Shown: positions 1 to 19,130, numbered from the stretch's first letter. The stretch: 64,000 nt of DNA from an uncultured Acidobacteriota bacterium (GCA_963836075.1 CAWIIB010000009.1:3360001-3424000); one strand, 5' to 3'. A program made the numbers and translations. Notes: generated from the sequence alone by a model not told the origin.

Positions 1-1
1 G

Positions 2-373
2 CCAAAATCGCTGCGCGTCAACGGGAAAATTGCACCCCCCGTGATTTTACTGAAAGCGGGTGACGAGCTGCTCTTCAGCCCGGCCAGCGGATATGTGGCG
101 CACGTGGCGGTGTTCAACAGCGGGGCCGTTGGCACTCTGTCGGATGAGGAGACGGAAGTGAGGTGCGCGATCTGTTTGAACACGTTCGAGATGGGGGCCC
201 GGGTCTATGTGTGCCCTGGTTGTAAAAAGCCATTTCACCTCGATTCAGAAGATCAGCCGGAGGAGACCCGGCTGGTCTGTGCCCGTCCGGGCAACAGGTG
301 TCCCATCTGCCGGACGCCGATGAATTTTGAGGCTGGCTACACCGAGGTCCCGGAGTGCTTCCGGGGGCACTGA
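2..373 (+). CDS. 5'-truncated FHA-like/beta-grasp-like + RING-type zinc finger protein (candidate E3 ligase)
   Basis: The frame is open from base 2 (PKSLRVNGKIAPPVILLKAGDELLF, a VNG..L..GD motif typical of FHA or ThiS/MoaD C-termini). It is followed by CAIC-x12-CPGC-x4-H...C-x6-CPIC, a RING-like ligand pattern. Confidence 0.7.
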   Translation, partial: PKSLRVNGKIAPPVILLKAGDELLFSPASGYVAHVAVFNSGAVGTLSDEETEVRCAICLNTFEMGARVYVCPGCKKPFHLDSEDQPEETRLVCARPGNRCPICRTPMNFEAGYTEVPECFRGH

Positions 374-384
374 TCAGCTGAAGC

Positions 385-1632
385 ATGGGGGAGAGGACAG
401 TGGCGGATCTCTACTTCGAGATTGAGCATGGCGGGAATCATGATTCCACAATTCGCGCGCCCCGGGAGTCCCGCCTGCCGGATTTCATTGGTGCGCCGGA
501 TGGCGCCGGGAAGAAGCTCGGTGGGCTGCGGGTGGTCATTGCCGGATGTGGCAGCGTGGGGCAGGCCGTTGCCATTCACTGCGCCCGGTTGCAGGTGCGT
601 GAAATCAGTCTGGTGGACAGCAAGCCGCTGAAGTCCTCGAGCATGCTGACCCACGGCTGGGCTTTCCCCGAGGACCTCGGGCAGCCCAAAGCAACGGTTA
701 TCGGACGCCTGGTGAAGCAGATCTCCCCGGGCACCCGGGTCCGGGTGTATGACGGCCGGGTCGGTGAACTGGGTCTCCGTGCATTCGCATCCGCCGACCT
801 GGCCGTGCTCTGCACCGACAACCTGCTGGCCGAAGTGGAGGTGGGCCGCTGTTGCCGGTTGCTGGGTGTCCCGGTTTTTCAGGGTTCTCTACATGGGGCC
901 AGCATGACTGTGCAGGTTCGGGCCTGGAGCAATACGGCGGACGGGCCGTGCCCGGCCTGCAGCTATACCTCGGCCGAATTCGAAGCGCTGAACAGCGAGA
1001 CCGAATTCAGCTGCGAGGGGGGATTCGGGGGCCGGGGAGCGCCGCGGATCAGCGGTCCGGTGACGGCCAGCACCTCCTTTCTCTGTGCGCTCAGTGCGGA
1101 TATGACCATGGTGCAGCTGGTTCGCCACTGGTTGGGACTGGGCCTGCCGGTTCTCGATTCGATCCTGGAATGGAACGGCTTCACCCACCGCAGTACCGTC
1201 AACCCGCTGCAGCGGAAAGCCGGCTGCGGGGGAGAGCACACGGTGTGCCGCCGTGTGCCGTCAAACCACGCCATCGGTGAATCATCAATCCGTCAACTGC
1301 TCATCGCCGGCGGGGCTGCAACAAAAAAGAACCACGCCGGCATGTCCCTTCAGCTGGACGACCTTCTGTTCTGTGAGCGGGCATCGTGCGGTTGTCCGCC
1401 GTCACAGCAGTCCGGGAGGTTTTACAGCTGCGGTGCGGGAGGGGGCCGGGCTGGCGAGGTCTGCAGCACCTGCGGGCAGAAGCCCGTGCCGAGCCCTTTT
1501 CATTGTTACGAGATGGTTCCCCTGGCTGAGCTGAAGGCGTGCATGGATCAGCCGCTTTCAGAGCTGGGGGCGGGAAACGCCGGCTGGGCCAGGCTCCGTG
1601 ATCCGGAAGGGAGTGTGTTGATCGGTATCTGA
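385..1632 (+). CDS. ThiF/MoeB-family E1-like enzyme with C-terminal Cys-rich extension
   Basis: Motifs VVIAGCGSVG (GxGxxG), LVD, GQPKA, CTDN and CPAC; candidate catalytic Cys in FSCEG; C-terminal CGC...CSTC zinc-ribbon-like segment. Confidence 0.85.
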   Translation: MGERTVADLYFEIEHGGNHDSTIRAPRESRLPDFIGAPDGAGKKLGGLRVVIAGCGSVGQAVAIHCARLQVREISLVDSKPLKSSSMLTHGWAFPEDLGQPKATVIGRLVKQISPGTRVRVYDGRVGELGLRAFASADLAVLCTDNLLAEVEVGRCCRLLGVPVFQGSLHGASMTVQVRAWSNTADGPCPACSYTSAEFEALNSETEFSCEGGFGGRGAPRISGPVTASTSFLCALSADMTMVQLVRHWLGLGLPVLDSILEWNGFTHRSTVNPLQRKAGCGGEHTVCRRVPSNHAIGESSIRQLLIAGGAATKKNHAGMSLQLDDLLFCERASCGCPPSQQSGRFYSCGAGGGRAGEVCSTCGQKPVPSPFHCYEMVPLAELKACMDQPLSELGAGNAGWARLRDPEGSVLIGI

Positions 1633-1708: not shown

Positions 1709-2386
1709 ATGACAGGGAAAGATCAGCAGAATCACACCATACCGGCCGGCGGCCTGGCGGCGCTGGACCAGGTGCAGCTCAACCCGGCACTGGAGCATCT
1801 CTTTCGCAAGGCGGCCGCCGATTGCGGCGGACCAAACGAGTGGAAAAACAGGAAGCTCTTCGAAGCTCGGGAACTGCTGGCGCTGAGCCAGATCGCGCCG
1901 CGGTTCAAGGTCATCGAACTCGATCTGCGTGAGTCATTTCGCGCCCTGGCCTTTCTCTCCACACCGGTGCCGCTCCGGCCGGACGAGAATGGCCAGCTGC
2001 GCACCGCCTCGTACGCCATGCTGGGGATCACCTACCGGGAGGCCGCGGTGATCGAGCCCCAACCAGGGTTCAACTATGTGCAGATCTTGCAACCCGAAAA
2101 TCTTTTTCATCCAAATATTGCCTGCGAAGCTGGCGGGCAGGTGCTGTGTCTGGGCGTTTCCATGCCTGCGGGGCTGAGGATCAAGGAGCTTATCTTGTTG
2201 ACATATGGGGCTTTGTCGATGCAGCTGGTGATGGTGGACCCCGCGGATCATGCGGGAGTCCTCAATATCGAGGCGGCCCGGTGGTGGCAGGTGCCGGCCA
2301 ACCTGGCCCGGGCCCCCCTGACCCGCGAGGCTTTTCTGGCCGGCGGGGACGGGTATCTGGCAAAGGTTCAGGAGCAGAAGGCATAG
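1709..2386 (+). CDS. UBC/E2-like ubiquitin-conjugating enzyme homologue
   Basis: FHPNI...VLCLG (HPN motif plus catalytic Cys) and a downstream GVLNIEAARWW resembling the eukaryotic E2 PLNxEAA helix. AGGAGG RBS upstream. Confidence 0.75.
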   Translation: MTGKDQQNHTIPAGGLAALDQVQLNPALEHLFRKAAADCGGPNEWKNRKLFEARELLALSQIAPRFKVIELDLRESFRALAFLSTPVPLRPDENGQLRTASYAMLGITYREAAVIEPQPGFNYVQILQPENLFHPNIACEAGGQVLCLGVSMPAGLRIKELILLTYGALSMQLVMVDPADHAGVLNIEAARWWQVPANLARAPLTREAFLAGGDGYLAKVQEQKA

Positions 2387-3206: not shown

Positions 3207-3228
3207 CGGCTGAGAGGAGGTGAACGAG

Positions 3229-3522
3229 ATGAAGGAAATGACTTCGGTAACCGGTGGAGGGTCCGGGGCTGTGGGGACACTGGACCTCCTGGCCACGGAC
3301 ATCACCAACACGATGCAGATTCAGGCCCTGGGCATCCAGTCCGGGGCGCCGGTGTCGGCGGTTGCGCGCTCACTGGCGGCCACCATGAATCTGCCATCCG
3401 GTGTGCCCTGGGCCATTCGGGATGATCGCACCAGCGCGTTTCTCGATGACGCCCGGACCATTGGCGAGCAGGTCACACCGGACAGCAGTGTGACGGTTGT
3501 CCCTCGGACGCACCTCGGCTGA
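3229..3522 (+). CDS. Ubiquitin-like beta-grasp protein (YukD/EsaB-like), mature C-terminal Gly (PRTHLG*)
   Basis: AGGAGG at 3215-3220, ATG at 3229. About 97 aa with a Ubl-like pattern (VSAVARSLAATMNLP...FLDDARTIGEQV...VTVVPRTHLG). Lies among E1/E2/JAB genes. Confidence 0.75.
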   Translation: MKEMTSVTGGGSGAVGTLDLLATDITNTMQIQALGIQSGAPVSAVARSLAATMNLPSGVPWAIRDDRTSAFLDDARTIGEQVTPDSSVTVVPRTHLG

Positions 3523-4807: not shown

Positions 4808-6568
4808 ATGTCGATCACGGGCAATGACAAACCAGGGAAGATCGAGCACATGCTGGCCGACAGTGATCTCCCCTTCGCTCACCGCAAAATGATGCTCAAA
4901 CAGCTGATCAAGCACAGCAGCGAGGAGACGGATTCCATACTGGAGTCGATCCTCAACGGTGGTGAGAACAACAAACTGGACAAGACCCTGGCCCGCAAGG
5001 TCAAGTCGTACAACGAGAAGCTCAAGGCGCTGGAGGAGGGCCCGGTGCGGCCGGGCACCTTTCTTGGCTCCCGCCCGCACAGTAGTGGTGCGGTGACCCG
5101 TGTGCAGGTGAGGCTGGAGGACGGCACGACGGTGTTTCCGCTGCTGCCCCGCCCCCGTCTGCTGCGGGAACTGCGGCGGGGGGACTCCGTGGTGCTGGAC
5201 GGTCAGGCCCAGGCCGTCATCTCCCGTGAACCCGCCGCTGAGTGGTCGGGGGAGGTGGCGACCTACGAACGGCGGATCGGTCCGGAGCATGTGGAGATTT
5301 CCGTCCGCGGGGACGAGCGCCATGTCTTCGACGCCTCCCACGGGGTCATCGATCTGCTGAACCGGGAGAGTGTGGAGCCGGGCCGCCGGTTGCTGATCTG
5401 CCAGCGGCGGAAGTTCGTCATGGGGGTCGTGCCCGAGGAGGAGGGGCGGGTCCACTACCGCTATCTCGACCGGATGGCGGTGCCCGATGTGGTGGCGGAG
5501 CGGGACCTGGGAGATCCCCCGGCCTACCTCGACGAACTGATGAGTCATCTGCGGATGGAGATGACCAGGCCCGATCTGCGCCGCCGCTACGGTCTGCGCC
5601 GCTGCGCGATGAAGCTGCTGGCCGGGATCAGCGGTTCGGGCAAGAGCTACTCGCTGCTGGCCCTGTGGAATGCGATGTACCAGCTGATGGCCGAAGTGAC
5701 CGGAGTGCAGGTGGAGGATCTGCCGTCCCGGGTGATGCGCTTTCGGCCGGCCCAGCTGCTCAGCCACTGGTTCGGGGACAGTGACAGGAATATCGACCGC
5801 TTTTTCGGTGAGGTGCACCGGCTGGCCGACGAAAAATTTGCCGGCCCCGGGGGCAAGGTCTATGAACTGCCGGTGCTGGTGATCCTCGAGGAAGTGGATG
5901 GGATGAGCCGTGCCCGGGGGGGTGACGACATCTATGACCGGATCATGTCCACCCTGCTGGAACTGCTTGACCCCACACGCCAGGCGCTCAGCGACCGCAT
6001 GATCATCTTGGTGGGCACCACCAACGTGCCGGAGCAGATCGATCCGGCCTTCCTGCGCCGGATCGGGGGGACCATCGAAACCTTTGGCCATCTCAATCGG
6101 AGGAATTTCAGGGAGGTGCTGCGCAAGCGGCTGCAGCGGATACCCCTGGCTGCCCGGGACGGAATGGGCGATGACGATCTGCTGCAGGGGATGGTCAACG
6201 AACTGACCTCCTGGCTTTTCAGTTCCAACGGAGAGGACCACGGCCAGGTGGAGATTTCTCTGGTGGGCTCCGCCGAGCCGCTGGTCCACCGCCGCAGGGA
6301 CTTTCTCACCGCCGGCATGGTGGACCGGGCCGTACAGCAGGTGGCCGATCTGGCCTGCACGGAAGAGGATGCCGGCAGCGCCAACCCCGGCCTGACCCCG
6401 GCGATGCTGAAAAAGGCGCTGGACCGCCAGGTGCGGGCCATTGTGGACCTGCTCAGCCCGGGGAATGTGGGCAACTATCTGCAGTTGCCCGATGGGGTGC
6501 GGGTCCAGGGCATCAGGGTCATCGAGCGGCCGGTGATCCATTCTTTTGAGCTGGTGCGGGCGAGCTGA
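4808..6568 (+). CDS. ARC/Mpa-like proteasomal AAA+ ATPase homologue
   Basis: N-terminal coiled coil and tandem OB-like segments (GEVATYERRIG..ERHV..VEPGRRLLI..VPDV) as in Mpa/ARC. Walker A GISGSGKS, Walker B VILEEVD, GTTN..IDPAFLRR (SRH), and the Mpa-like DFLTAGMVDRAV. Confidence 0.85.
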   Translation: MSITGNDKPGKIEHMLADSDLPFAHRKMMLKQLIKHSSEETDSILESILNGGENNKLDKTLARKVKSYNEKLKALEEGPVRPGTFLGSRPHSSGAVTRVQVRLEDGTTVFPLLPRPRLLRELRRGDSVVLDGQAQAVISREPAAEWSGEVATYERRIGPEHVEISVRGDERHVFDASHGVIDLLNRESVEPGRRLLICQRRKFVMGVVPEEEGRVHYRYLDRMAVPDVVAERDLGDPPAYLDELMSHLRMEMTRPDLRRRYGLRRCAMKLLAGISGSGKSYSLLALWNAMYQLMAEVTGVQVEDLPSRVMRFRPAQLLSHWFGDSDRNIDRFFGEVHRLADEKFAGPGGKVYELPVLVILEEVDGMSRARGGDDIYDRIMSTLLELLDPTRQALSDRMIILVGTTNVPEQIDPAFLRRIGGTIETFGHLNRRNFREVLRKRLQRIPLAARDGMGDDDLLQGMVNELTSWLFSSNGEDHGQVEISLVGSAEPLVHRRRDFLTAGMVDRAVQQVADLACTEEDAGSANPGLTPAMLKKALDRQVRAIVDLLSPGNVGNYLQLPDGVRVQGIRVIERPVIHSFELVRAS

Positions 6569-6614
6569 TCCGGAATCGCCGTCCGGACGGGGAAAGATCG
6601 AGGAGGAGAGGCAG

Positions 6615-6950
6615 ATGGCCGACGAACGGAGGAGACCGAAAAGAGAGGAGACCGGGCCAGGTCCCGGTGGCCTCGGTGATGTGTTTGCCGGACCCGAAAC
6701 GGGCGGGGCGGTAACGGTTTGCCATGGACCGTACAGCGAGGATCTGCCGGTGGGCAACATGAGTGTGGGTGAGGTCCGGCGCCGGTTCTCGGACCGCCTG
6801 GACATCGACCCCCAGAGCCAGGCGGTGATCGACGGCAACGAGGTGGACGACAGCACCGTGCTGCGCGGCGGCCAACTGCTGGCCTTTATCCGGCAGGCTG
6901 GTGAAAAGGGCGGGAGGAGACGGTCCCACGGGGGAGGATCGCCATGTTGA
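6615..6950 (+). CDS. Second ubiquitin-like protein (PRTRC protein C-like FIRQAGEKG motif with short C-terminal extension)
   Basis: AGGAGGAG RBS, ATG 6615. MSVGEVRRRF..LDIDP..AVIDGNEV....VLRGGQLLAFIRQAGEKG is a beta-grasp pattern. Confidence 0.75.
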   Translation: MADERRRPKREETGPGPGGLGDVFAGPETGGAVTVCHGPYSEDLPVGNMSVGEVRRRFSDRLDIDPQSQAVIDGNEVDDSTVLRGGQLLAFIRQAGEKGGRRRSHGGGSPC

Positions 6951-7894
6951 GCAAGCTGGCCGCAAGGCGGGCGGAGGCGCGGTCCGCTTCGCGCCGGCAG
7001 ACGGTGCACCAGGTGACCATCAAGGGTGAGCTGGTCTCCACGGCCACCCCGGAGGGGCAGCCGGTCTGCATGAAACTGAAGGACCTGCTGGGGCTGATCT
7101 CGACCCACGGGGATCGATCGCTGGAGACCGGAGGCCTGTTGCCCGACGGGGTCAAGCTGGTCCGGTCCCGGGGGCCGGTGACCGTCTGGACCTACCAGCG
7201 GCCACCCCAGGTGCACAACCTGAGGTGGATCGCCGCCGACTCTCCCGTGCCGTTCGGAAAGGGCAGCACCTACCGCTCGGTGCGTATCGCGCTGCCCTAC
7301 CTGGTGGTGCTGGCCGTGTTTATCACCGGGAGGAACAACCGTCTGCAGCTGTCGCAATACAACGAGTGCTTTTTCCGCAACGAACCTCTGAAGAGTGTTG
7401 AGGACCAGCTGTTCTACCCGGCACTGCTCAACTGTTCGAAGTTCAACCCGCAGGAGGGGCACCCGCTTTCCTGGATCTGCACCGCAAATATGGACCTCAG
7501 GCGTCTGGGCCGGCTCCCGGACGAGAACGAACGGATGCGGGGCAGTATGAATGCTCTGCTGCACTGCCTGCTGGAAACCGGTTACAACCATTCCAGCGAA
7601 CACCACGAGGAGACAAGCTGGTTCACCGAGTCCGCCACGGTGGACCCGCGGGTCGCCACCGTCGAGAGGTGGGAGCAGGCCACCGCCAAAGACAGTCTTT
7701 TCGTCCTTGACGTCCCCTGGCTCAAAACCGGCAGGAGCCTGGGGCAGGTGATCGAAAGGATATTCGACAATGCCGGCAGTTCCCGCGGACGGCTGGCCAC
7801 TTCCAATGACCTGATGCGGCTGATGGCCAACAACAGCGAGCGGCTGCCGGCGAAGGAAGAAGCGCAGGGGGTATTTATCGATGAACTGTTCTGA
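6944..7894 (+). CDS. Prokaryotic E2-like protein (PRTRC protein B/Prok-E2_D-like)
   Basis: ALPYLVVL...FFRNEPL..DQLFYPALLN...WICTANM matches my recollection of the L(Y/F)xAP..N...xC motif of this family. Located between the Ubl and JAB genes. Confidence 0.7.
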   Translation: MLSKLAARRAEARSASRRQTVHQVTIKGELVSTATPEGQPVCMKLKDLLGLISTHGDRSLETGGLLPDGVKLVRSRGPVTVWTYQRPPQVHNLRWIAADSPVPFGKGSTYRSVRIALPYLVVLAVFITGRNNRLQLSQYNECFFRNEPLKSVEDQLFYPALLNCSKFNPQEGHPLSWICTANMDLRRLGRLPDENERMRGSMNALLHCLLETGYNHSSEHHEETSWFTESATVDPRVATVERWEQATAKDSLFVLDVPWLKTGRSLGQVIERIFDNAGSSRGRLATSNDLMRLMANNSERLPAKEEAQGVFIDELF

Positions 7895-9735: not shown

Positions 9736-10500
9736 TCAGCCGTCGAGGAGGATACTTGAGCAGGTGAGCCCCGATTCGGCCTTGAGCAGCTCGGAGATGT
9801 CCACCGTCTTCACCTGGAAACCTGCCGCGCGGACTGCGGAGATGGTCCGCCCGAACTCCCGGTGGAGGCAGACAAAGCGGCCGGCCCGGAGGGCGTTGGC
9901 CGCCTCGGCTTCGTCGTCATCCACTGGAATGACGGTGAAACCGGCGAAGGGGCCGGGGTCGAAAAGGCCCTGGCGGGCCAGCAGGGTCTGGTCGTCCAGA
10001 GCGGAGACCGCCGACTTGAGGTGCAGGCAGCCTTTCATGGTCACCGGGACCACCGTGTAGCCGTGGGGCGACAGCAGGCGGGACAACTGGTCGATCCCGT
10101 CCTGGTTGGTGCGCGCGGAGAGGCCGACATAGAGGGTCCGGCCCACACGGAGCACGTCGCCGCCTTCCAGGGTGCCCGGCTCCACGATCCGTTCCAGCGG
10201 TCGGTAACCGGCCAGCACCGGCTCAATACCGGCCACCTCACCGCGCCGGGACAGGACGCCCGGCCGGGCAAGCACGGCCAGTTCATCCACCACCACTGCC
10301 GTGTCCTCGATGAACGTGCAGTCGGGGTGCGCAATGTTGACATCGGTTTCCAGCACCTGGTACCCGCAATCCTCGAGCATCCGGCGGTAGCCGGCATGCT
10401 GGGCCCGTGCCAGTTCGAGGTTGATCGGCTCCCGTCGGCGGAAGCTCAGCTCGCAGCGGTTGATCCGGGGTGAGACCACGTGGGTCAGGGCAATATTCAT
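9736..10500 (-). CDS. Dimethylarginine dimethylaminohydrolase (amidinotransferase family)
   Basis: HPDCTFIEDTAVV, RRGE, LEGGDVL, LHLKSA, C-terminal GLTCSS catalytic Cys. Confidence 0.9.
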   Translation of the reverse strand: MNIALTHVVSPRINRCELSFRRREPINLELARAQHAGYRRMLEDCGYQVLETDVNIAHPDCTFIEDTAVVVDELAVLARPGVLSRRGEVAGIEPVLAGYRPLERIVEPGTLEGGDVLRVGRTLYVGLSARTNQDGIDQLSRLLSPHGYTVVPVTMKGCLHLKSAVSALDDQTLLARQGLFDPGPFAGFTVIPVDDDEAEAANALRAGRFVCLHREFGRTISAVRAAGFQVKTVDISELLKAESGLTCSSILLDG

Positions 10501-12407
10501 GGGGTATCTCCGGAACCTTCGCCGGCCTCCCGTTTCAATTCCAGCTCCTGCCAGCGGTCGTAGACCGCAGCCAGTTCCGTCTCCAGCTCAGCCAGCCGGG
10601 CGGTGTCCCGGGCAATCTCTCCGGCCGGGGAGCGGTAGTAGTCCTGCTCCTCCATCCGGGTAAAGAGCCCCTGCTGCTCCCGCTCCAGCTTCTCGATCCG
10701 ATCGGGCAGGGCGTCCAGCTCCCGCTGGTCCTTGTAGCCCAGCTTGCCCGGCTTTGTCTTGCGTGGCGGGCGGGGGTGTGCGGCTTTTTTGGCCGCGGCG
10801 GCGGGTGCCGCGGCGGCGGGTGGCCGCTGGCGCAGCCAGTCGTCATACCCGCCCACGTATTCGGTCACCCGGCCCTGGCCTTCAAAGACCATGGTGCTGG
10901 TCACCACGTTGTTCAGAAACGTCCGGTCGTGGCTCACCAGCAGCAGTGTGCCGCTGTACTCCATGAGCAGCTCCTCCAGCAGTTCGAGGGTCTCCAGGTC
11001 GAGGTCATTGGTCGGCTCGTCCAGCACCAGTACGTTGGAGGGACGGGCCAGGAGCCGGGCCAGGAGCAGACGGCTCCGTTCGCCGCCGGAGAGGGCATTC
11101 ACCGGAGTGTTGGCCCGTTCGGGAGAGAAGAGAAAGCGTTGCAGGTAGCCCATCACCTGGTGCTGCCGGCCGCCGAGGGTGAATACATCGGCGCCACCGG
11201 CGATATTGTCCTTCACCGAGCGGTTTTCTTCCAACTGCTCCCGCAACTGGTCGAACCGGGACACTTCGAGATTCACCCCGTGCCGGACATGGCCCTGATC
11301 CGGGGGCAGCAGGCCCAGCAGCAGGCCGAGCAGGGTGGTTTTGCCCGAGCCGTTGGGCCCGATCAGCCCCACCCGGTCACCGCGCATCACGAGGGTGGAA
11401 AAATCGTGCACCACCGGATTGCCGTCCCAGGCGTAGGAGATTCCCCGGGCCTCGAAGACCAGCTTACCGGTGCGCTGCGCCTCTTCCACCAGCATATCCA
11501 CCGTACCGGTCTGTTCCCGGCGGGCTTCCCGCTGAGCGCGCATCGTCTCCAGGGCGCGGACCCGCCCCTCGTCCCGTGTCCGGCGGGCCTTTATGCCCTT
11601 GCGGATCCACTGTTCCTCTCTGGCCAGGCGCCGGTCGAACTCGGCGTTACGGCCCTCTTCGGCCTCCAGATCCTCGGCCCGGCGTTTGAGGAAGGTACTG
11701 TAATCGCAGTTCCAGTCGTGGATTGTCCCCCGGTCCAGTTCCACCACCCGGGTGGCCAGCCGGCTGAGAAAGGCGCGGTCGTGGCTGACGAAGAGCAGCG
11801 CGGATGTCGAATCGGCCAGGAACTGCTCCAGCCAGGTGATGGTGGCCAGGTCGAGGTGGTTGGTGGGCTCGTCCAGCAGCAGCAGGTCCGGTTCGCTCAC
11901 CAGGGCCCGGGCCAGCAGCGCCCTGCGGGTCAGACCGGCGGAGAGGCTGGAGCAGGGGGCGTCGGGGTCGAGGCTCATTCTGGAGATCACCCGGTCCGCC
12001 TTTTGCCGGACCTGCCAGCCGTCTTCGCTGTCCAGTTGCTGTTGCACCTCGGCCAGGCGGTCCATGGCTCCGCCGCCCGACTCCAGTTCGCTGCTCAAGC
12101 GGCGATACTCGGCGAGCAGTTCGCCCGTCGGTCCGAGGCCGGTGGTGACCAGGTCGTGGAGCGTTCCTTCGAGGCTCAGTGGCACGTCCTGGGCCAACAG
12201 GGCCGTGGTCAGGCCCTGGCGGCGGGCCACCGCACCGCCATCGGGCTTCAACTGGCCGTCAATGAGCCTCATCAGGCTGGTTTTTCCGGCACCGTTGCGG
12301 CCCAGCAGGCAGACCCGTTCCCCCTCGCTGATCCGCAGGTTGGCTCCCTCGAGCAGCCGCGGACCGCCAAAGGCGAGATCCACGTTCTGGAGACTGGTCA
12401 GCCACAT
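10497..12407 (-). CDS. uup: ABC-F family ATPase Uup
   Basis: Two ABC domains (GRNGAGKT, GPNGSGKT, LLDEPTN), WIRKGIKARRTRDEGRVRAL linker, C-terminal KLGYKDQREL coiled coil. Confidence 0.9.
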   Translation of the reverse strand: MWLTSLQNVDLAFGGPRLLEGANLRISEGERVCLLGRNGAGKTSLMRLIDGQLKPDGGAVARRQGLTTALLAQDVPLSLEGTLHDLVTTGLGPTGELLAEYRRLSSELESGGGAMDRLAEVQQQLDSEDGWQVRQKADRVISRMSLDPDAPCSSLSAGLTRRALLARALVSEPDLLLLDEPTNHLDLATITWLEQFLADSTSALLFVSHDRAFLSRLATRVVELDRGTIHDWNCDYSTFLKRRAEDLEAEEGRNAEFDRRLAREEQWIRKGIKARRTRDEGRVRALETMRAQREARREQTGTVDMLVEEAQRTGKLVFEARGISYAWDGNPVVHDFSTLVMRGDRVGLIGPNGSGKTTLLGLLLGLLPPDQGHVRHGVNLEVSRFDQLREQLEENRSVKDNIAGGADVFTLGGRQHQVMGYLQRFLFSPERANTPVNALSGGERSRLLLARLLARPSNVLVLDEPTNDLDLETLELLEELLMEYSGTLLLVSHDRTFLNNVVTSTMVFEGQGRVTEYVGGYDDWLRQRPPAAAAPAAAAKKAAHPRPPRKTKPGKLGYKDQRELDALPDRIEKLEREQQGLFTRMEEQDYYRSPAGEIARDTARLAELETELAAVYDRWQELELKREAGEGSGDTP

Positions 12408-12434
12408 GGGTCTGGTTGAACGCTCGGTATCGGG

Positions 12435-14120
<1,686 letters not shown>

Positions 14121-14272
14121 TGGTGTTTCCTGATAGTAGGTGGTGAAAAAGCTTTCAGACGATTGCCAGGGGCCTTCTTATACCCTGTTTCGCCGCATGG
14201 ATACCAGTGGCTGGCGGATGGCGGAAGCCCGGTGTGCAGTTCGGGTGTCGGGTGGGGGACGCCGGCCGGCAG

Positions 14273-14608
14273 TCAGTTGCCCTTGCCGGTCTCCCGTTTG
14301 AGGATCCGGTTGGAGATCCGGAAGTGGGAACCGCTCCAGGCCGCCTTGCCGTCACGGACCACGATCACCTGGGGTGAGTGGTGCTCAACGCCAAGACGCC
14401 CGGCCACCTCTTGGGCAAGATCTTTCCCTTCAACGGAATCCAACTGGTAGACCGCGACCTCCGGGTGCTCGGTGGCAAACTCGCGCACCTGCCGTTCAGC
14501 CTTGGTACAGATCCAGCAGCGGCTACTGTGCTTGTAGATCACCGACAGCTCGGCGTCGAGGGCCTCGTCCAGTGTTTCTTCGTTGACCAGCGGTTTCAAC
14601 GGCATCAC
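14273..14608 (-). CDS. YtxJ/DUF2847-like thioredoxin-fold protein
   Basis: KHSSRCWIC and GVEHHSPQVIVVRDGKAAWSGSH motifs. Confidence 0.8.
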   Translation of the reverse strand: MMPLKPLVNEETLDEALDAELSVIYKHSSRCWICTKAERQVREFATEHPEVAVYQLDSVEGKDLAQEVAGRLGVEHHSPQVIVVRDGKAAWSGSHFRISNRILKRETGKGN

Positions 14609-14676
14609 GGGGCTCCTCCTTTCGGTTGCACGGCGGCGGGGGGGGGAGGGTTCTCCGGGATCCGCGCCGCACTGGA

Positions 14677-15162
14677 TCAGGCCTCGGTGATGGTCACCGA
14701 GGTCAAGGTATCGTTCTGCTGGATTGCGTCAACCACATCCTCGCCGCTGGTCACCTTGCCGAAGACCTTGTGGTGGCCGTCGAGGTGCGGCTGAGGCGAG
14801 TGGGTGATGAAGAACTGGCTGCCGTTGGTGTTCGGTCCGGCGTTGGCCATGGAGATCACGCACCTTTCGTGCTTCAGGTCTCCGGGGCCGAACTCGTCAT
14901 TGAAGCGGTAGCCGGGGCCACCTCGGCCGGTGCCGGTGGGGTCGCCGCCCTGAACCATGAAGTTGGCGATCACCCGGTGAAAGACCAGGTTGTCATAGAA
15001 CCCCTCACGGGCCAGAAAGACAAAGTTGTTCACCGCGGTGGGTGCCGCTTTGGGGTCCAGAGCCAGCTGGATCGTGCCCCGACTGGTTTCCATAGTTGCC
15101 TGATAGGTCTTGTCGGCATCGATCTGCATTGCCGGTGGATTGCTCCACTGCTTGGGAGGCAT
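14677..15162 (-). CDS. Cyclophilin-type peptidyl-prolyl cis-trans isomerase
   Basis: [36 protein letters not shown]. Confidence 0.95.
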
Positions 15163-15363
15163 GGGTTTTCCCTTTCCGTTCGTTGACTATTACACTTTGT
15201 GACTGAGAGCGCGGATATTGTAGCACACCGTTTTTCATTCAGGGAATCCCGGCGCGCACATTTCGGGACCTGACCCCGAAAATGTGCACATGTCGTCCCC
15301 TGGCCTGGGGGTACGGAAAAAAGCCCGAACCGTTCCGATGATCCGGGGCATTTTGAACTGCAG

Positions 15364-15391
15364 GGCCGGCGGTGATTGCTCACCGCCGGCC
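15364..15391 (-). terminator. Stem-loop downstream of tricorn protease gene
   Basis: ggccggcggtga-ttgc-tcaccgccggcc is a 12-bp perfect stem just after the stop at 15400. There is no clear U tract. Confidence 0.45.
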
Positions 15392-15399
15392 ATTGTTGA

Positions 15400-18300
15400 T
15401 CAATAGTCGGATTCGGGCAGGCCCATTCCGGAGCGGTCGGGCCATGCGGGAACCGGGGCCGCCTTGAAAGCGCCGGTCTTCGCTTCCTCGATCATCTGTT
15501 CGATGGCCCGGTCCAGCTGCGGGTCACCGCCGTCCACCATCAGGGCCGGGTCATCCAGCACCTCGATGTCTGGATCCACGCCGTGGCCCTCGATGCCCCA
15601 GGTGCCGTCAATGTCGTAGAAGGCGAAGGACGGGGTGGTCACGCCGGCGCCGTCCAGCAGCGGCGGGCCGCCGCCGATGCCCACCAGACCGCCCCAGGTG
15701 CGGGTGCCGATCAGCTTGCCCAGTTTGTTGTGCTTGAAGAGGTAGGGAAAGTGGTCCCCGCCCGATCCGGCCAGGCCGTTGATCAGCATGCACTTGGGAC
15801 CGTGGTGCGCGTCCTGGGGCCAGACCACCTGGCCCTTGAGGTCACGGACCGACCAGTAGTTGGTGATCGGCCGGTTGAGCAGTTCGATGAAGCGGGTGGG
15901 CACCTGGCCGCCGCCGTTCCAGCGTTCGTCGATGATCAACGCTTCCTTCTCGATCTGGCCCACGAACTGGCGCACCAGTTCACTCTGGCCCTGGATGCCG
16001 GTATTGGGCACGTAGATATAGCCCACCTTGCCGCCCGATTTGCGGTCCACATACTGCCGGTTGGCTTCCACCCAGGCCCGGTAGCGCAGGTCGCCGTCGT
16101 TGCCCAGCAGCTCAACCAGCACCTGGCGGTCATTTTCACCGCTATTCGGCTCTTCGCTCACCGTCAGACGCACGGTCTGCCCGGCCTTGCCCACAAAGGA
16201 GGCCCAGGGGTCGCGATTCGTGTCCACCGGAACGCCGTTAACCGCCAGCAGGTAGTCACCGACCTTGACGTCCACTCCGGGCTGGCTCAGCGGGCCGCGG
16301 GCATCCACGTCCCAGGGGCCGCCCTCGAGAATCAGCGAGATGCGGTAAGCGCCGTCGTTCAACTCGAAGTCACAGCCCAGCATGCCGGTGGGCAGTTGGG
16401 GCGGGTTCTCGTTGTCACCGCCGAAGTAGTAGGTGTGGCCAACGTTCAGCTCGGCGATCAGTTCGCGGAGAATGAAGCCCACGTCCTCGCGGGAGGTGCA
16501 CTCCTCGATGAGCGGGGCATACTGCTCACGGACGGCTTCCCAGTTCAGGCCGTGCATGTTGGGGTCGTAGAAGAAATCGCGCTCGCGGCGCCAGACTTCG
16601 TTGAAGATCTGCCGCCACTCCTCGCGGGGGTTCACCGTGGCCAGCATGCCGCCGGTGGGAACCATCTCCTCCAGCTTCTGGTCCGCAGCGGCGTTGATGA
16701 TCGCCATCGCCCCGCCCTCGTTGACCACCAGCAGCTTCTTGCCGTCGGCGGAAATGTCCACCAGGTTGACCCCGCCGGCCACCGTTTTGACCTTCTCCTT
16801 CTCGTCGTCGAAGTCGAAGAGGTGGATGGTGGGTGGCCCCTGGGTCCCGGGAGCCGGGGCCTTGGCAAAGATCAGCTTGTTTCCGTCGTTGACACAGAGG
16901 CCGAAGAAGGCGCCCTTGTCCATGGGCAGGGCGATGGCCCGCTGTTCGAACCCCTCGAGGTCTATTTTCAAGGGGTCTTCTTCCTCTTCCTCAGCTTCGC
17001 CATCCTTGTCCTTGTCTTCGCCCTCGTCTCCGTCCTTGGCCTCTCCGTCCTCCTTCTCATCGCCGTTTTCGTCCTTCTCCTCCTCGATCTCCTCGTCGTC
17101 GCTCTTCGGGGCCAGCGGGTTTTCCACGTCGGCGTTCAGCGGCACGGCGTAGAGCCGGTCGGTGGCGGTGTAGACCCAGGTGGTGTCCACGTCGGAGTAA
17201 ATCGGACTGCTGAAGTCACGATTGCTGGCGAAAAAGAGAAACTTGCCTTCACGGTCGAAAGTGGGCCAGGTGATGCCGAACATCGTGTCGGTCACCTGGT
17301 GCTTTTTACCGGCGGCCATCTCGTAGAGGAAGATCTGGTTCGGACCGCGAAGGCTGGTGCCGCGGGCCCAGGCCAGCCAGTTGGAGTCGTGGGACCAGCT
17401 GAGGCTGGTTGCTCCCGGGCCCAGCTGTTCCTCGATCACCTTCGCTTCCTTTGATTCAACATTGTAGAGATAGAGTTTGCCGCTTTTTTCCCAGAAGGCG
17501 ATCCACTCGCTGTCCGGGGACCAGTTGGCCGCGAAGTAGTAGGAGGGCGGCAGGTCGGTGACCCTTTCCGCTTCAGCCGGAGCTGTCGGCGGCACTGATG
17601 TAGAGCTGGTATTCACCGGTCCCGTCGGAGAACCAGGCGATCCACTTCTTGTCCGGGCTGAACGTCGGATAGCGCTCGGCGGCACCGCTGGTGCGGGTGA
17701 AGTTCACCGGCGAGCCGTTTTTGGCCGGCAAAGTCCAGACGTCGCCCCGGGCGCCCACGGCAACCCGTTTGCCGGTGGGGGAGAGGGAGCGGCTGAACAG
17801 CGATTCGGAGGCGTCCTTTATCTGGGGACGGATCTGGGGACGGGCGCCGGGGATGGTGACCTGCACCGCAGTGCTGCCGCCACCGGCCAGGTCGAGCAGG
17901 CGCAGCTCGGCGCCCAGCTGGTAGACAATCTGGTTCGGGCCGATGGAAGGCCATTTCACGTCATAGGAGGCGTGGTCGGTCACCTGGGTGCGTGTGCCGT
18001 TCTTCGTATCGTAGGACCAGATGTTCAGCCGGTGTTCCGGGCCGTTGTCCGAGAGGTAGTAGAGGGTATCGCCGTGCCACATGGGGTAGGTGTCGGTACC
18101 TTCCCAGTCGGTGATCTTTTTGGAAGTGTTCTTCTTCAGGTTAATCAGCCAGATATCGGTGGCCATCCCGCCGCGGTAGCGTTTCCAGTTGCGGAAGTCC
18201 CGGGAGTGGGGGGTGTAGGCCAGCCACTTGCCGTCGTCGCTCACCGCGCCGTTGGCGCCGTAGGGCACCGGCATCTTTTCCGGCAGGCCGCCGTCCGCCG

Positions 18301-18739
18301 CCACCGTGAACAGCTCCCTGGTGCGGGGGTTGAGGCCGATACCGCCGGCGTAAAAGATCAGTTCACCGTCCGGGGTCCAGTCGCAGAGCGTCTCGCCGGT
18401 GGGGTGGTGGGTCACCCGGAACGGTTCGCCGCCGGCCACCGGGATGGTGTAGAGGTCCTGGCCACCGTCGTAGTTGCCCATGAAGGCGATGGTCTTGCCG
18501 TCGGGACTGAACTTGGGGAATACCTCGCCCCCGGGCGGGCTGGCCAACGGCACGGCCGTGCCGCCGGTGACCGGGACCAGCCAGAGGTCATTGGAGTAGC
18601 GGAAGACGATATGCGAGTCACTGACATCAGGGAAGCGGATCATTCCGGTGTCCGATGTTCCCGCCCAGGCCGTTGCCCCGGCCAGGGCCAGGATGGTGAT
18701 CAGCAGGGGTATCCCTGTCCAGAACCGTTTTCCGCTCAT
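15400..18739 (-). CDS. Tricorn-like S41 protease (beta-propellers, PDZ, S41 domain), split by an apparent +1 frameshift at ~17575
   Basis: Signal peptide, WKRYRGGMA, DERWNGGG, AGSGGD, GTRTWGGLVG. Removing the base at 17575 joins SAADSSG to EAERVTD. Confidence 0.85.
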
Positions 18740-19130
18740 CTGACGCTCTCCTTTGTTTGATGGCTCCCCGGCCCGATGGCGCCGCAACCCTGCGCCGCCA
18801 CAGTTATGGGGGATCGTCACTCCCCAACCGCCGGCCGGCGGCCGGGAGTCGATTCGTAACATGAGTGAACATACACCGGAGTTCCGCACCCCAGGCTCCA
18901 GGCCGGAAGTCCGCTCTCACCCCGGTATTTCCCTTCTATAACGCAGAAGGAAGCTCCAGGTTCCATTAATGATGGAACGTGTTTGTCTACTATATCAGCA
19001 GTTTACCCTGTGGGGATAGTGAAGCGGGGTTGGTTCAGGTCATGGTCTATTGCTCCTCGCACCGGTCGCGTAACGCTCCGACGTCGCTCGGATGCAACAA
19101 AGCATGATCTGAACTCAATTTTTGGAGTAT

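Follow-up and report, generated by a model that had tools for sequence, protein, structure and literature searches.

The window analysed here, a stretch of 64,000 nt that corresponds to G000:C9:3360001-3424000, opens inside a gene whose product combines an FHA-fold domain with a RING-like zinc finger. The in-window part of this gene (1..373, + strand) is followed by the next gene of the operon, which encodes an E1-like adenylating enzyme of the ThiF family (385..1632, +; Pfam ThiF, E 5.4e-24), and then by a gene for an E2-like protein (1709..2386, +) that displays an HPN...C pattern with an invariant cysteine, C147. Although no Pfam match was obtained for this last product, 56 homologues (alignment A3) and a conserved gene order designate it as the presumed partner of the RING.

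The frame of the first gene had been described in the sequence-only reading as open from base 2, and this was borne out: the + frame is uninterrupted up to the stop codon at 371-373 and reads PKSLRVNGKIAPPVILLKAGDELLF... as quoted there. Bases 2-373 thus represent the last 123 codons of a gene of 213 codons. In the upstream genome sequence, the frame runs back to an ATG at window -268 (L001:1232, that is G000:C9:3359732), giving a product of 213 aa. This ATG, located 269 bases before the window, matches the start Met in 92% of 130 aligned relatives, and a Shine-Dalgarno-like GGGAGGTG is found 7 nt upstream of it. The position at which an ORF had been said to begin, base 41, does hold a GTG that is the first start codon within the window but, given the family alignment and GGGAGGTG at the upstream ATG, it is an artefact of the window edge and not the true start of the gene. 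The product, 213 aa in length, is presumably cytoplasmic and consists of two domains, both of them tightly predicted.

The gene is the first of a putative 11-gene cassette for ubiquitin-like conjugation. Its setting was compared among 23 loci from public genomes, which were fetched by means of 55 aligned homologues of the adjacent E2. In all 20 loci that hold upstream DNA (the remaining three end before the position of the FHA-RING gene), a two-domain FHA-RING homologue lies directly before the E1 and then the E2, in a neighbourhood with E1, E2, Ubl and JAB genes, and the same 11-gene order occurs in every locus where the contig reaches. These loci are labelled Planctomycetota, Verrucomicrobiota, Deltaproteobacteria/Thermodesulfobacteriota, Gemmatimonadota, Eiseniibacteriota and Chromatiales. 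A second Ubl (6546-6950) and a second E2-like protein (6944-7894) are assigned to the cassette as well. No kinase or phosphatase is present among the 11 conserved cassette genes. A Pfam scan of 108 ORFs in the flanks of 20 loci brought up no recurrent family; the families found include a Ser/Thr kinase in two loci, an integrase in one and a Schlafen-type helicase in one. Since the flanks vary by locus and share no recurrent family, the cassette looks like a horizontally moving unit without a kinase of its own.

The protein belongs to a family of some size. An exhaustive search of cluster representatives gave 415 of them at E<=1e-3, of which 195 also pass E<=1e-10. Lengths among the best 150 of the 415 range from 110 to 298 aa (median 207), and in most cases the match extends over the two halves of the query. 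Relatives were taken from this search and from the loci fetched via the E2 alignment, and an alignment of 130 of the cluster representatives (A1) is the basis of the conservation figures given below. Outside the finger cysteines and histidine that are invariant, positions C161, C164, N97, D111, L49, L181 and P207 are each at least 90% conserved in A1. Searches using the single protein returned little: apart from the protein itself, a word-index homologue search retrieved a single relative (P0002; 83% identity), which bears a precomputed PF14446 label, a pattern scan of genome contigs gave no relatives and a search of related genomes matched 0 of 60. With the family profile, and with seven candidates scored per genome, matches were obtained in eight of 400 other sampled genomes of the same phylum (Acidobacteriota) and in neither of the two genomes of the same genus. 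Neither NCBIfam nor PADLOC has a family for this protein.

The N-terminal domain covers aa 1-135. Its larger part is encoded before the window, which contains only the C-terminal third (aa 91-135; 2..136, +) with the nearly invariant N97 and D111. An AlphaFold2 model of the full protein, calculated on A1, reached a pLDDT of 87.7 and a pTM of 0.81. In this model, aa 1-135 are all-beta, with 11-12 strands (6-13, 38-42, 47-51, 57-60, 71-78, 81-88, 104-108, 112-114 and 121-129, plus short bridges), and the pLDDT exceeds 90 in most of this part. Its one weakly predicted segment is a variable-length, low-complexity insert rich in Gly, Ala and Pro between strands 1 and 2 (aa 14-37, L001:1271-1342), for which the pLDDT is ca. 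53 and across much of which more than half of the relatives are gapped.

Exhaustive comparison of the modelled domain with 48,161 solved chains using VIA-align yielded FHA-type structures in 50 of the 50 matches listed. FHA is stated in the titles of 31 of these, and the other 19 are titles that we take to designate FHA-containing proteins, such as CEP170, PNK, EmbR, APLF, kinesin-3, Pml1 and GarA/OdhI. Rad53, CHK2, TIFA and YscD also count among these 19, as does the association domain of IRF9, which is related. CEP170 ranks first, with Z 10.2 and an rmsd of 2.6 over 93 residues; the FHA domain of RNF8 (Z 8.2, rmsd 3.6 over 98 residues) and the N-terminal domain of YscD (Z 8.2) also occur in this set. 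Foldseek gave a comparable picture, 33 of the 37 matches listed being FHA entries (best E 2.2e-3), three RING domains and one an unrelated entry. In the protein atlas, the best scores for the domain were 0.85-0.88, which is below 0.9 and thus counts as a lead only; two FHA clusters are among the four entries listed. Of the two folds that had been put forward from the end of the domain, FHA or ThiS/MoaD-like, only the former was retained; no beta-grasp entry was found among the 50 VIA-align or the 37 Foldseek matches listed. On the strength of the model and its structural matches, the N-terminal domain can be assigned with high confidence to the FHA-type beta-sandwiches.

At the level of sequence, Pfam gave no match to aa 1-143 at E<=10, PF00498 (FHA) included, and a PF00498 search of the whole genome located 10 canonical FHA domains elsewhere and none at the FHA-RING gene. 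Nor does FHA occur among the 25 Pfam families that were listed when the 130 relatives were searched; each of a further 14 families, not listed, matches one relative at most. When the domain was compared by hhalign with nine FHA domains of its own genome, a local alignment was obtained over aa 92-117 (RVNG...L..GD) with a probability of 58% and a pairwise E of 1e-4, in which this segment aligns with the 'vNG...L..GD.i' stretch of those domains; the global alignment with canonical FHA domains had a probability of 2%. A profile restricted to the N-terminal domain (A4, built from 19 sequences taken by DNA reference) produced nine weak matches to solved structures, five of which are FHA domains, with TIFAB as the best (E 0.095).

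The loops corresponding to the FHA motifs were mapped from the TIFAB alignment and the order of the strands, together with weak profile alignments, so that the positions given here are approximate and do not come from a superposition. The column of the GR arginine (ca. 53), a phosphate contact in the beta3-beta4 loop of FHA domains, has a K in this protein and P (21%), A (13%) or R (12%) in relatives in this approximate alignment. Columns 67 and 70, which correspond to SxxH of the beta4-beta5 loop, are occupied by A and F, the commonest residues among the 130 relatives being A in both cases (19% and 25%). The beta6-beta7 loop of the first NG (88-93), whose alignment is of low confidence, displays P89 (53%) and G91 (48%) and no conserved Asn. 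Overall, no residue exceeds 53% in the motif columns (ca. 53, 67, 70 and ca. 88-93) of the 130 relatives, and Arg, Ser or Asn is conserved in none of them; shifting the alignment by a few residues leaves the motifs absent because the entire loops are variable. Structural turns are kept, namely the second NG (N97 99%, G98 85%) and the GD (D111 99%), and E74, P75, R95 and H124 are conserved as well. As judged from the alignment, the domain appears to have retained only the structural motifs of FHA domains (NG turn and GD turn), without conserved phosphate-binding residues.

These results bear directly on the most striking part of what had been proposed, a phospho-switch in which recognition of phospho-Thr would direct the tagging. 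The GR, SxxH and NG motifs were looked for, and the columns that approximately correspond to them are variable in the 130 relatives. One could still envisage that the domain reads phosphothreonine by means of a non-canonical pocket and tags proteins phosphorylated by a Ser/Thr kinase of the host or of a phage. The FHA fold itself, as recognized by Foldseek and VIA-align, would be in line with such a function; the 10 canonical FHA domains of the genome indicate that phospho-signalling exists in the organism; basic residues that are moderately conserved occur near the loops (R95 68%, R58 38%, R93 30%); and two of the 20 loci (L019 and L023) have a Pkinase gene at a distance of 1-2 kb on the upstream side. 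Against this, the GR, SxxH and NG columns are without conserved Arg, Ser or Asn, the Pfam FHA model misses the domain at E<=10 and does not figure in the list of families matched by the 130 relatives, the 11 conserved genes comprise neither kinase nor phosphatase, and 18 of the 20 loci are without Pkinase in the flanks scanned. Phosphothreonine reading is thus considered very improbable and phospho-directed tagging is not supported, whereas the FHA-plus-RING architecture is.

In another possible reading, the FHA-fold domain would serve as a docking module that ties the RING to the 271-aa protein of the cassette, to the unfoldase, to a Ubl or to the E1, and would thereby act as an assembly scaffold. 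FHA-like domains without phosphate pockets act as assembly modules in secretion systems, and the N-terminal domain of YscD is found among the structural matches (Z 8.2). Moreover, surface-type residues that are conserved (E74, R95 and H124) are located on strands and not in the variable apical loops, and the cassette is strictly co-inherited. These residues may, however, contact the RING of the same protein, since a pTM of 0.81 suggests a fixed arrangement of the two predicted domains, and a role confined to scaffolding is regarded as rather unlikely.

The second domain is a predicted RING-like binuclear zinc finger of the C4HC3 type (aa 141-197; 152..322, +), as supported by Prok-RING_1 and zf-RING_2 scores, ligand conservation and structural matches. 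Its eight ligands are encoded on the + strand between 164 and 310, by codons 164-166 (C145), 173-175 (C148), 212-214 (C161), 221-223 (C164), 236-238 (H169), 278-280 (C183), 299-301 (C190) and 308-310 (C193), and follow the pattern C-x2-C-x12-C-x2-C-x4-H-x13-C-x6-C-x2-C. In A1, C145, C148, H169, C183, C190 and C193 are invariant and C161 and C164 are 98% conserved, a level of conservation that lies far beyond chance. The Cys/His finger that had been anticipated behind the N-terminal domain in the sequence-only reading is indeed present.

That family is Prok-RING_1 (PF14446), prokaryotic RING finger family 1, which reportedly originates from the work of Burroughs, Iyer and Aravind (2011, Mol Biosyst 7:2261). 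It scores 25.4 bits with the full protein and 27.7 bits with the part encoded in the window, in both cases below the Pfam gathering cut-off of 29.1, and the alignment spans positions 3-33 only of the 54 positions of the profile. The general RING models rank below it, zf-RING_2 reaching 17.8-19.1 bits. Among the 130 relatives, Prok-RING_1 is the leading Pfam family, with 75 matching at E<=0.01 (best 1.7e-8).

The structural matches of the finger, which reached a pLDDT of 83.4 when folded alone, are weak. With Foldseek, the best is the RING-H2 of EL5 (E 4.5e-2), with PHD and FYVE fingers interleaved. With VIA-align, the best Z was 4.4 and no chain reached Z>=5; the 50 matches listed include 28 RING, U-box or E3 chains and two PHD. 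In searches of solved structures with the family profile, PHD6 of KMT2D came first (E 1.1e-3) and several RING-H2 chains followed at E 0.06-0.3. Sites that we take to contact the E2 in eukaryotic RINGs, namely a hydrophobic residue between ligands 1 and 2, another before ligand 6 and a Pro after ligand 7, are conserved in A1 as position 147 (V/L/I/F, 87%), L181 (91%) and P191 (73%). The last pair of ligands reads CPICR in this protein. The residue after the last Cys, presumably the 'linchpin' of many eukaryotic RINGs, varies in A1 (G 21%, Q 18%, R 16%). With 13 residues between the His and the following Cys, the spacing departs from that of classical RINGs as well as from that of PHD fingers.

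The finger is thus a predicted binuclear treble-clef of the RING/PHD type. In another explanation, it would be a PHD-like or other treble-clef that binds a peptide or the Ubl, the protein then being a reader or regulator and not a ligase. Such a function is compatible with the C4HC3 order of the ligands, with KMT2D PHD6 as the best sequence match among solved structures (E 1.1e-3) and with the PHD and FYVE fingers found in between RINGs by Foldseek, and not all prokaryotic RING fingers are said to act in ubiquitin-type systems (reportedly Burroughs et al. 2011). RING is nevertheless favoured over PHD because of Pfam, in which Prok-RING_1 leads with 75 of 130 relatives, because of the VIA-align list (28 RING, U-box or E3 chains against two PHD among the 50 matches listed) and because of the gene context, the position beside the E1 and E2 being fixed. 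In addition, C4HC3 is described as the usual pattern of prokaryotic RINGs in the section of PMC11354881 that deals with them (section 3.8). A reader or regulator that is not a ligase is viewed as improbable.

The fifth ligand of the finger (His) and the sixth (Cys) are separated by an acidic insert (239..277, +), LDSEDQPEETRLV, which ends in the conserved R180-L181. An acidic insertion at this place had been noticed earlier and qualified as unusual; it is indeed there, but it is common to the family, since it has 13 residues in 70 of the 130 relatives and 8-22 residues in 129 of them, with a mean D+E fraction of 0.36. Section 3.8 of PMC11354881 gives prokaryotic RINGs as C4HC3 fingers with a longer insertion, with which the conserved acidic insert agrees. 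In two homologues, at L003:1548-2204 and L008:7847-8542, this insert is much longer, reaching ca. 30-40 residues, and is less acidic. Downstream of the finger, a C-terminal tail (aa 198-213; 323..370, +) carries a G-Y-x-x-x-P-E motif, with GYxYxPE as the consensus in A1, in which G202 (88%), Y203 (64%), P207 (96%) and E208 (67%) are conserved.

Observation thus covers the gene and the family to which it belongs, together with the fold, the pattern of ligands and the place in the operon, and the fact that it always leads an operon for Ubl tagging suggests that the product is likely the ligase that chooses the targets. We therefore propose, with a probability of roughly 55%, that the FHA-RING protein is the E3 of the first module of the cassette, its RING docking the E2 and its FHA-fold domain recruiting without reading phosphothreonine. 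The finger would bind zinc through its C4HC3 ligands, would confer E3 activity and would dock the neighbouring UBC-like E2 once this has been charged with the small Ubl of 3220-3522. The FHA-fold domain would for its part bring in a target protein or a partner from the cassette, either via its variable apical loops or via another face, and this recruitment would presumably take place without phosphothreonine being read. Prediction of a complex between the FHA-RING protein and the E2 of 1709-2386, both supplied as alignments and with no controls included, gave scores of 0.57, 0.30 and 0.27; the median of 0.30, for a mark of 0.32, speaks neither for nor against binding.

This E3 reading invites comparison with RNF8, CHFR and Dma1, to which the protein had been likened. 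RNF8, CHFR and Dma1/Dma2 (PMC3637335 and PMC3406662) share with it an N-terminal FHA fold, a C-terminal RING and a small size, and the first of these sources calls the order FHA-before-RING 'unique' to Dma/RNF8/CHFR in eukaryotes. The likeness holds for the order of the domains and for the fold, as seen with the RNF8 FHA domain (Z 8.2), and not for kinship in sequence, no RNF8, CHFR or Dma1 chain being found among the solved-structure matches of the family and N-domain profiles at E<=10. The bacterial protein also differs in that the residues that bind phosphothreonine are not conserved, in that its finger is C4HC3 with an insert when the eukaryotic one is C3HC4, and in that it would work with a bacterial Ubl, E1 and E2. 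It is therefore an architectural analogue of RNF8, CHFR and Dma1 and not a demonstrated relative. A more ambitious reading, which we hold only tentatively and consider doubtful as it stands, would make it the bacterial counterpart, and possibly the forerunner, of the eukaryotic FHA-RING ligases, with an FHA-fold receptor whose binding face has been reshaped and that selects targets for tagging by the E2, a motor resembling proteasome ATPases that unfolds them and JAMM peptidases that remove the tag. If this reading were correct, bacteria would possess a complete, substrate-selective pathway for tagging, unfolding and untagging.

Other known systems resemble parts of this arrangement. With Prok-RING_1 proteins, the protein has in common the top Pfam family, the C4HC3 ligands and a neighbourhood of E1, E2, Ubl and JAB genes; it departs from them by a score below the cut-off, by an alignment restricted to the first half of the profile, by the 13-residue acidic insert and by the FHA-fold domain fused in front. 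The E1/E2/RING-E3 ubiquitylation operon of the archaeon 'Candidatus Caldiarchaeum subterraneum' (Hennell James et al. 2017, cited in PMC10557695) is alike in having a small RING protein beside an E1, an E2, a Ubl and a JAMM peptidase. The archaeal RING protein is not known to carry an FHA-fold domain, nor is its operon, which consists of one module, known to include an AAA+ unfoldase. The beta-sandwich of the N-terminal domain is the same as that of the N-terminal domain of YscD (4a0e), of the kinesin-3 FHA domains (2g1l and 3fm8) and of TIFAB (8wwy), all without the canonical phosphate pocket, and TIFAB has a further LEP stretch in common with it after the position of SxxH. Those domains, however, occur in proteins of secretion, motor and signalling systems and not before a RING in a Ubl operon.

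According to PMC10557695, RING-type E3s occur in bacterial operons with E1, E2, Ubl and DUB genes, where they are rare, and these operons are uncharacterised. In the literature searched, the scope of which did not include Burroughs et al. 2011, no paper on a bacterial FHA-RING protein was found, and only the eukaryotic Dma1, CHFR and RNF8 were returned for FHA-RING proteins. What appears to be new is thus a divergent finger of the Prok-RING_1 type with a previously unannotated FHA-fold partner domain, although a prior description is possible. No part of the bacterial ubiquitin-like systems is as rare or as little studied as the RING-type E3s, and the component that decides on targets is the first thing needed for finding the targets and the purpose of such a system. 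The present family, which is large (415 representatives) and well conserved and joins a RING to an FHA fold that sequence models missed, supplies a concrete candidate for the cassette component that decides what gets tagged. The order FHA-before-RING also exists in bacteria, at least at the level of fold, which bears on the origin of domain combinations in ubiquitin systems.

Several observations were made in and around the cassette. Upstream of the gene, an intergenic stretch of 679 nt (L026:13053-13731), which ends at window -269, has a G+C content of 41% as compared with 64% for the cassette and is likely a regulatory region. On its other side, a divergent gene (L026:11784-13052, -) has a 422-aa product whose N-terminus displays a weak Cro/C1-type HTH; homologues with 24-40% identity adjoin the cassette in four of the 23 loci (L004, L005, L013 and L014), and this protein may be a regulator of the cassette. 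The flanking Pkinase genes mentioned above were found in Planctomycetes-type loci, at L019:5223-6152 (-) and L023:5627-7108 (-), 1-2 kb upstream of the FHA-RING gene. A phage-type integrase gene (L004:18138-18965, -) lies ca. 450 nt past the last cassette gene in one locus and a gene for a Schlafen-group-3-like helicase (L018:2779-4779, -) is found upstream in another, both of which hint at a mobile or defence-island setting. Within the cassette, ca. 5.4 kb are inserted between the E2 gene and the gene of the 271-aa unknown protein in one case (L021:10582-16024), which breaks the cassette, and an extra 1.2-1.5 kb that may represent an additional gene in some cassette variants is found between the genes for the AAA+ ATPase and the second Ubl at L007:7248-8476, L011:7590-9044 and L013:14896-16194. 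Finally, immediately after the cassette, the window switches strand (9736-18889, -) to genes of a housekeeping-like nature, which include an arginine-deiminase-like gene, two ATPases of the ABC-F type and a tricorn-type protease that has a beta-propeller partner gene.
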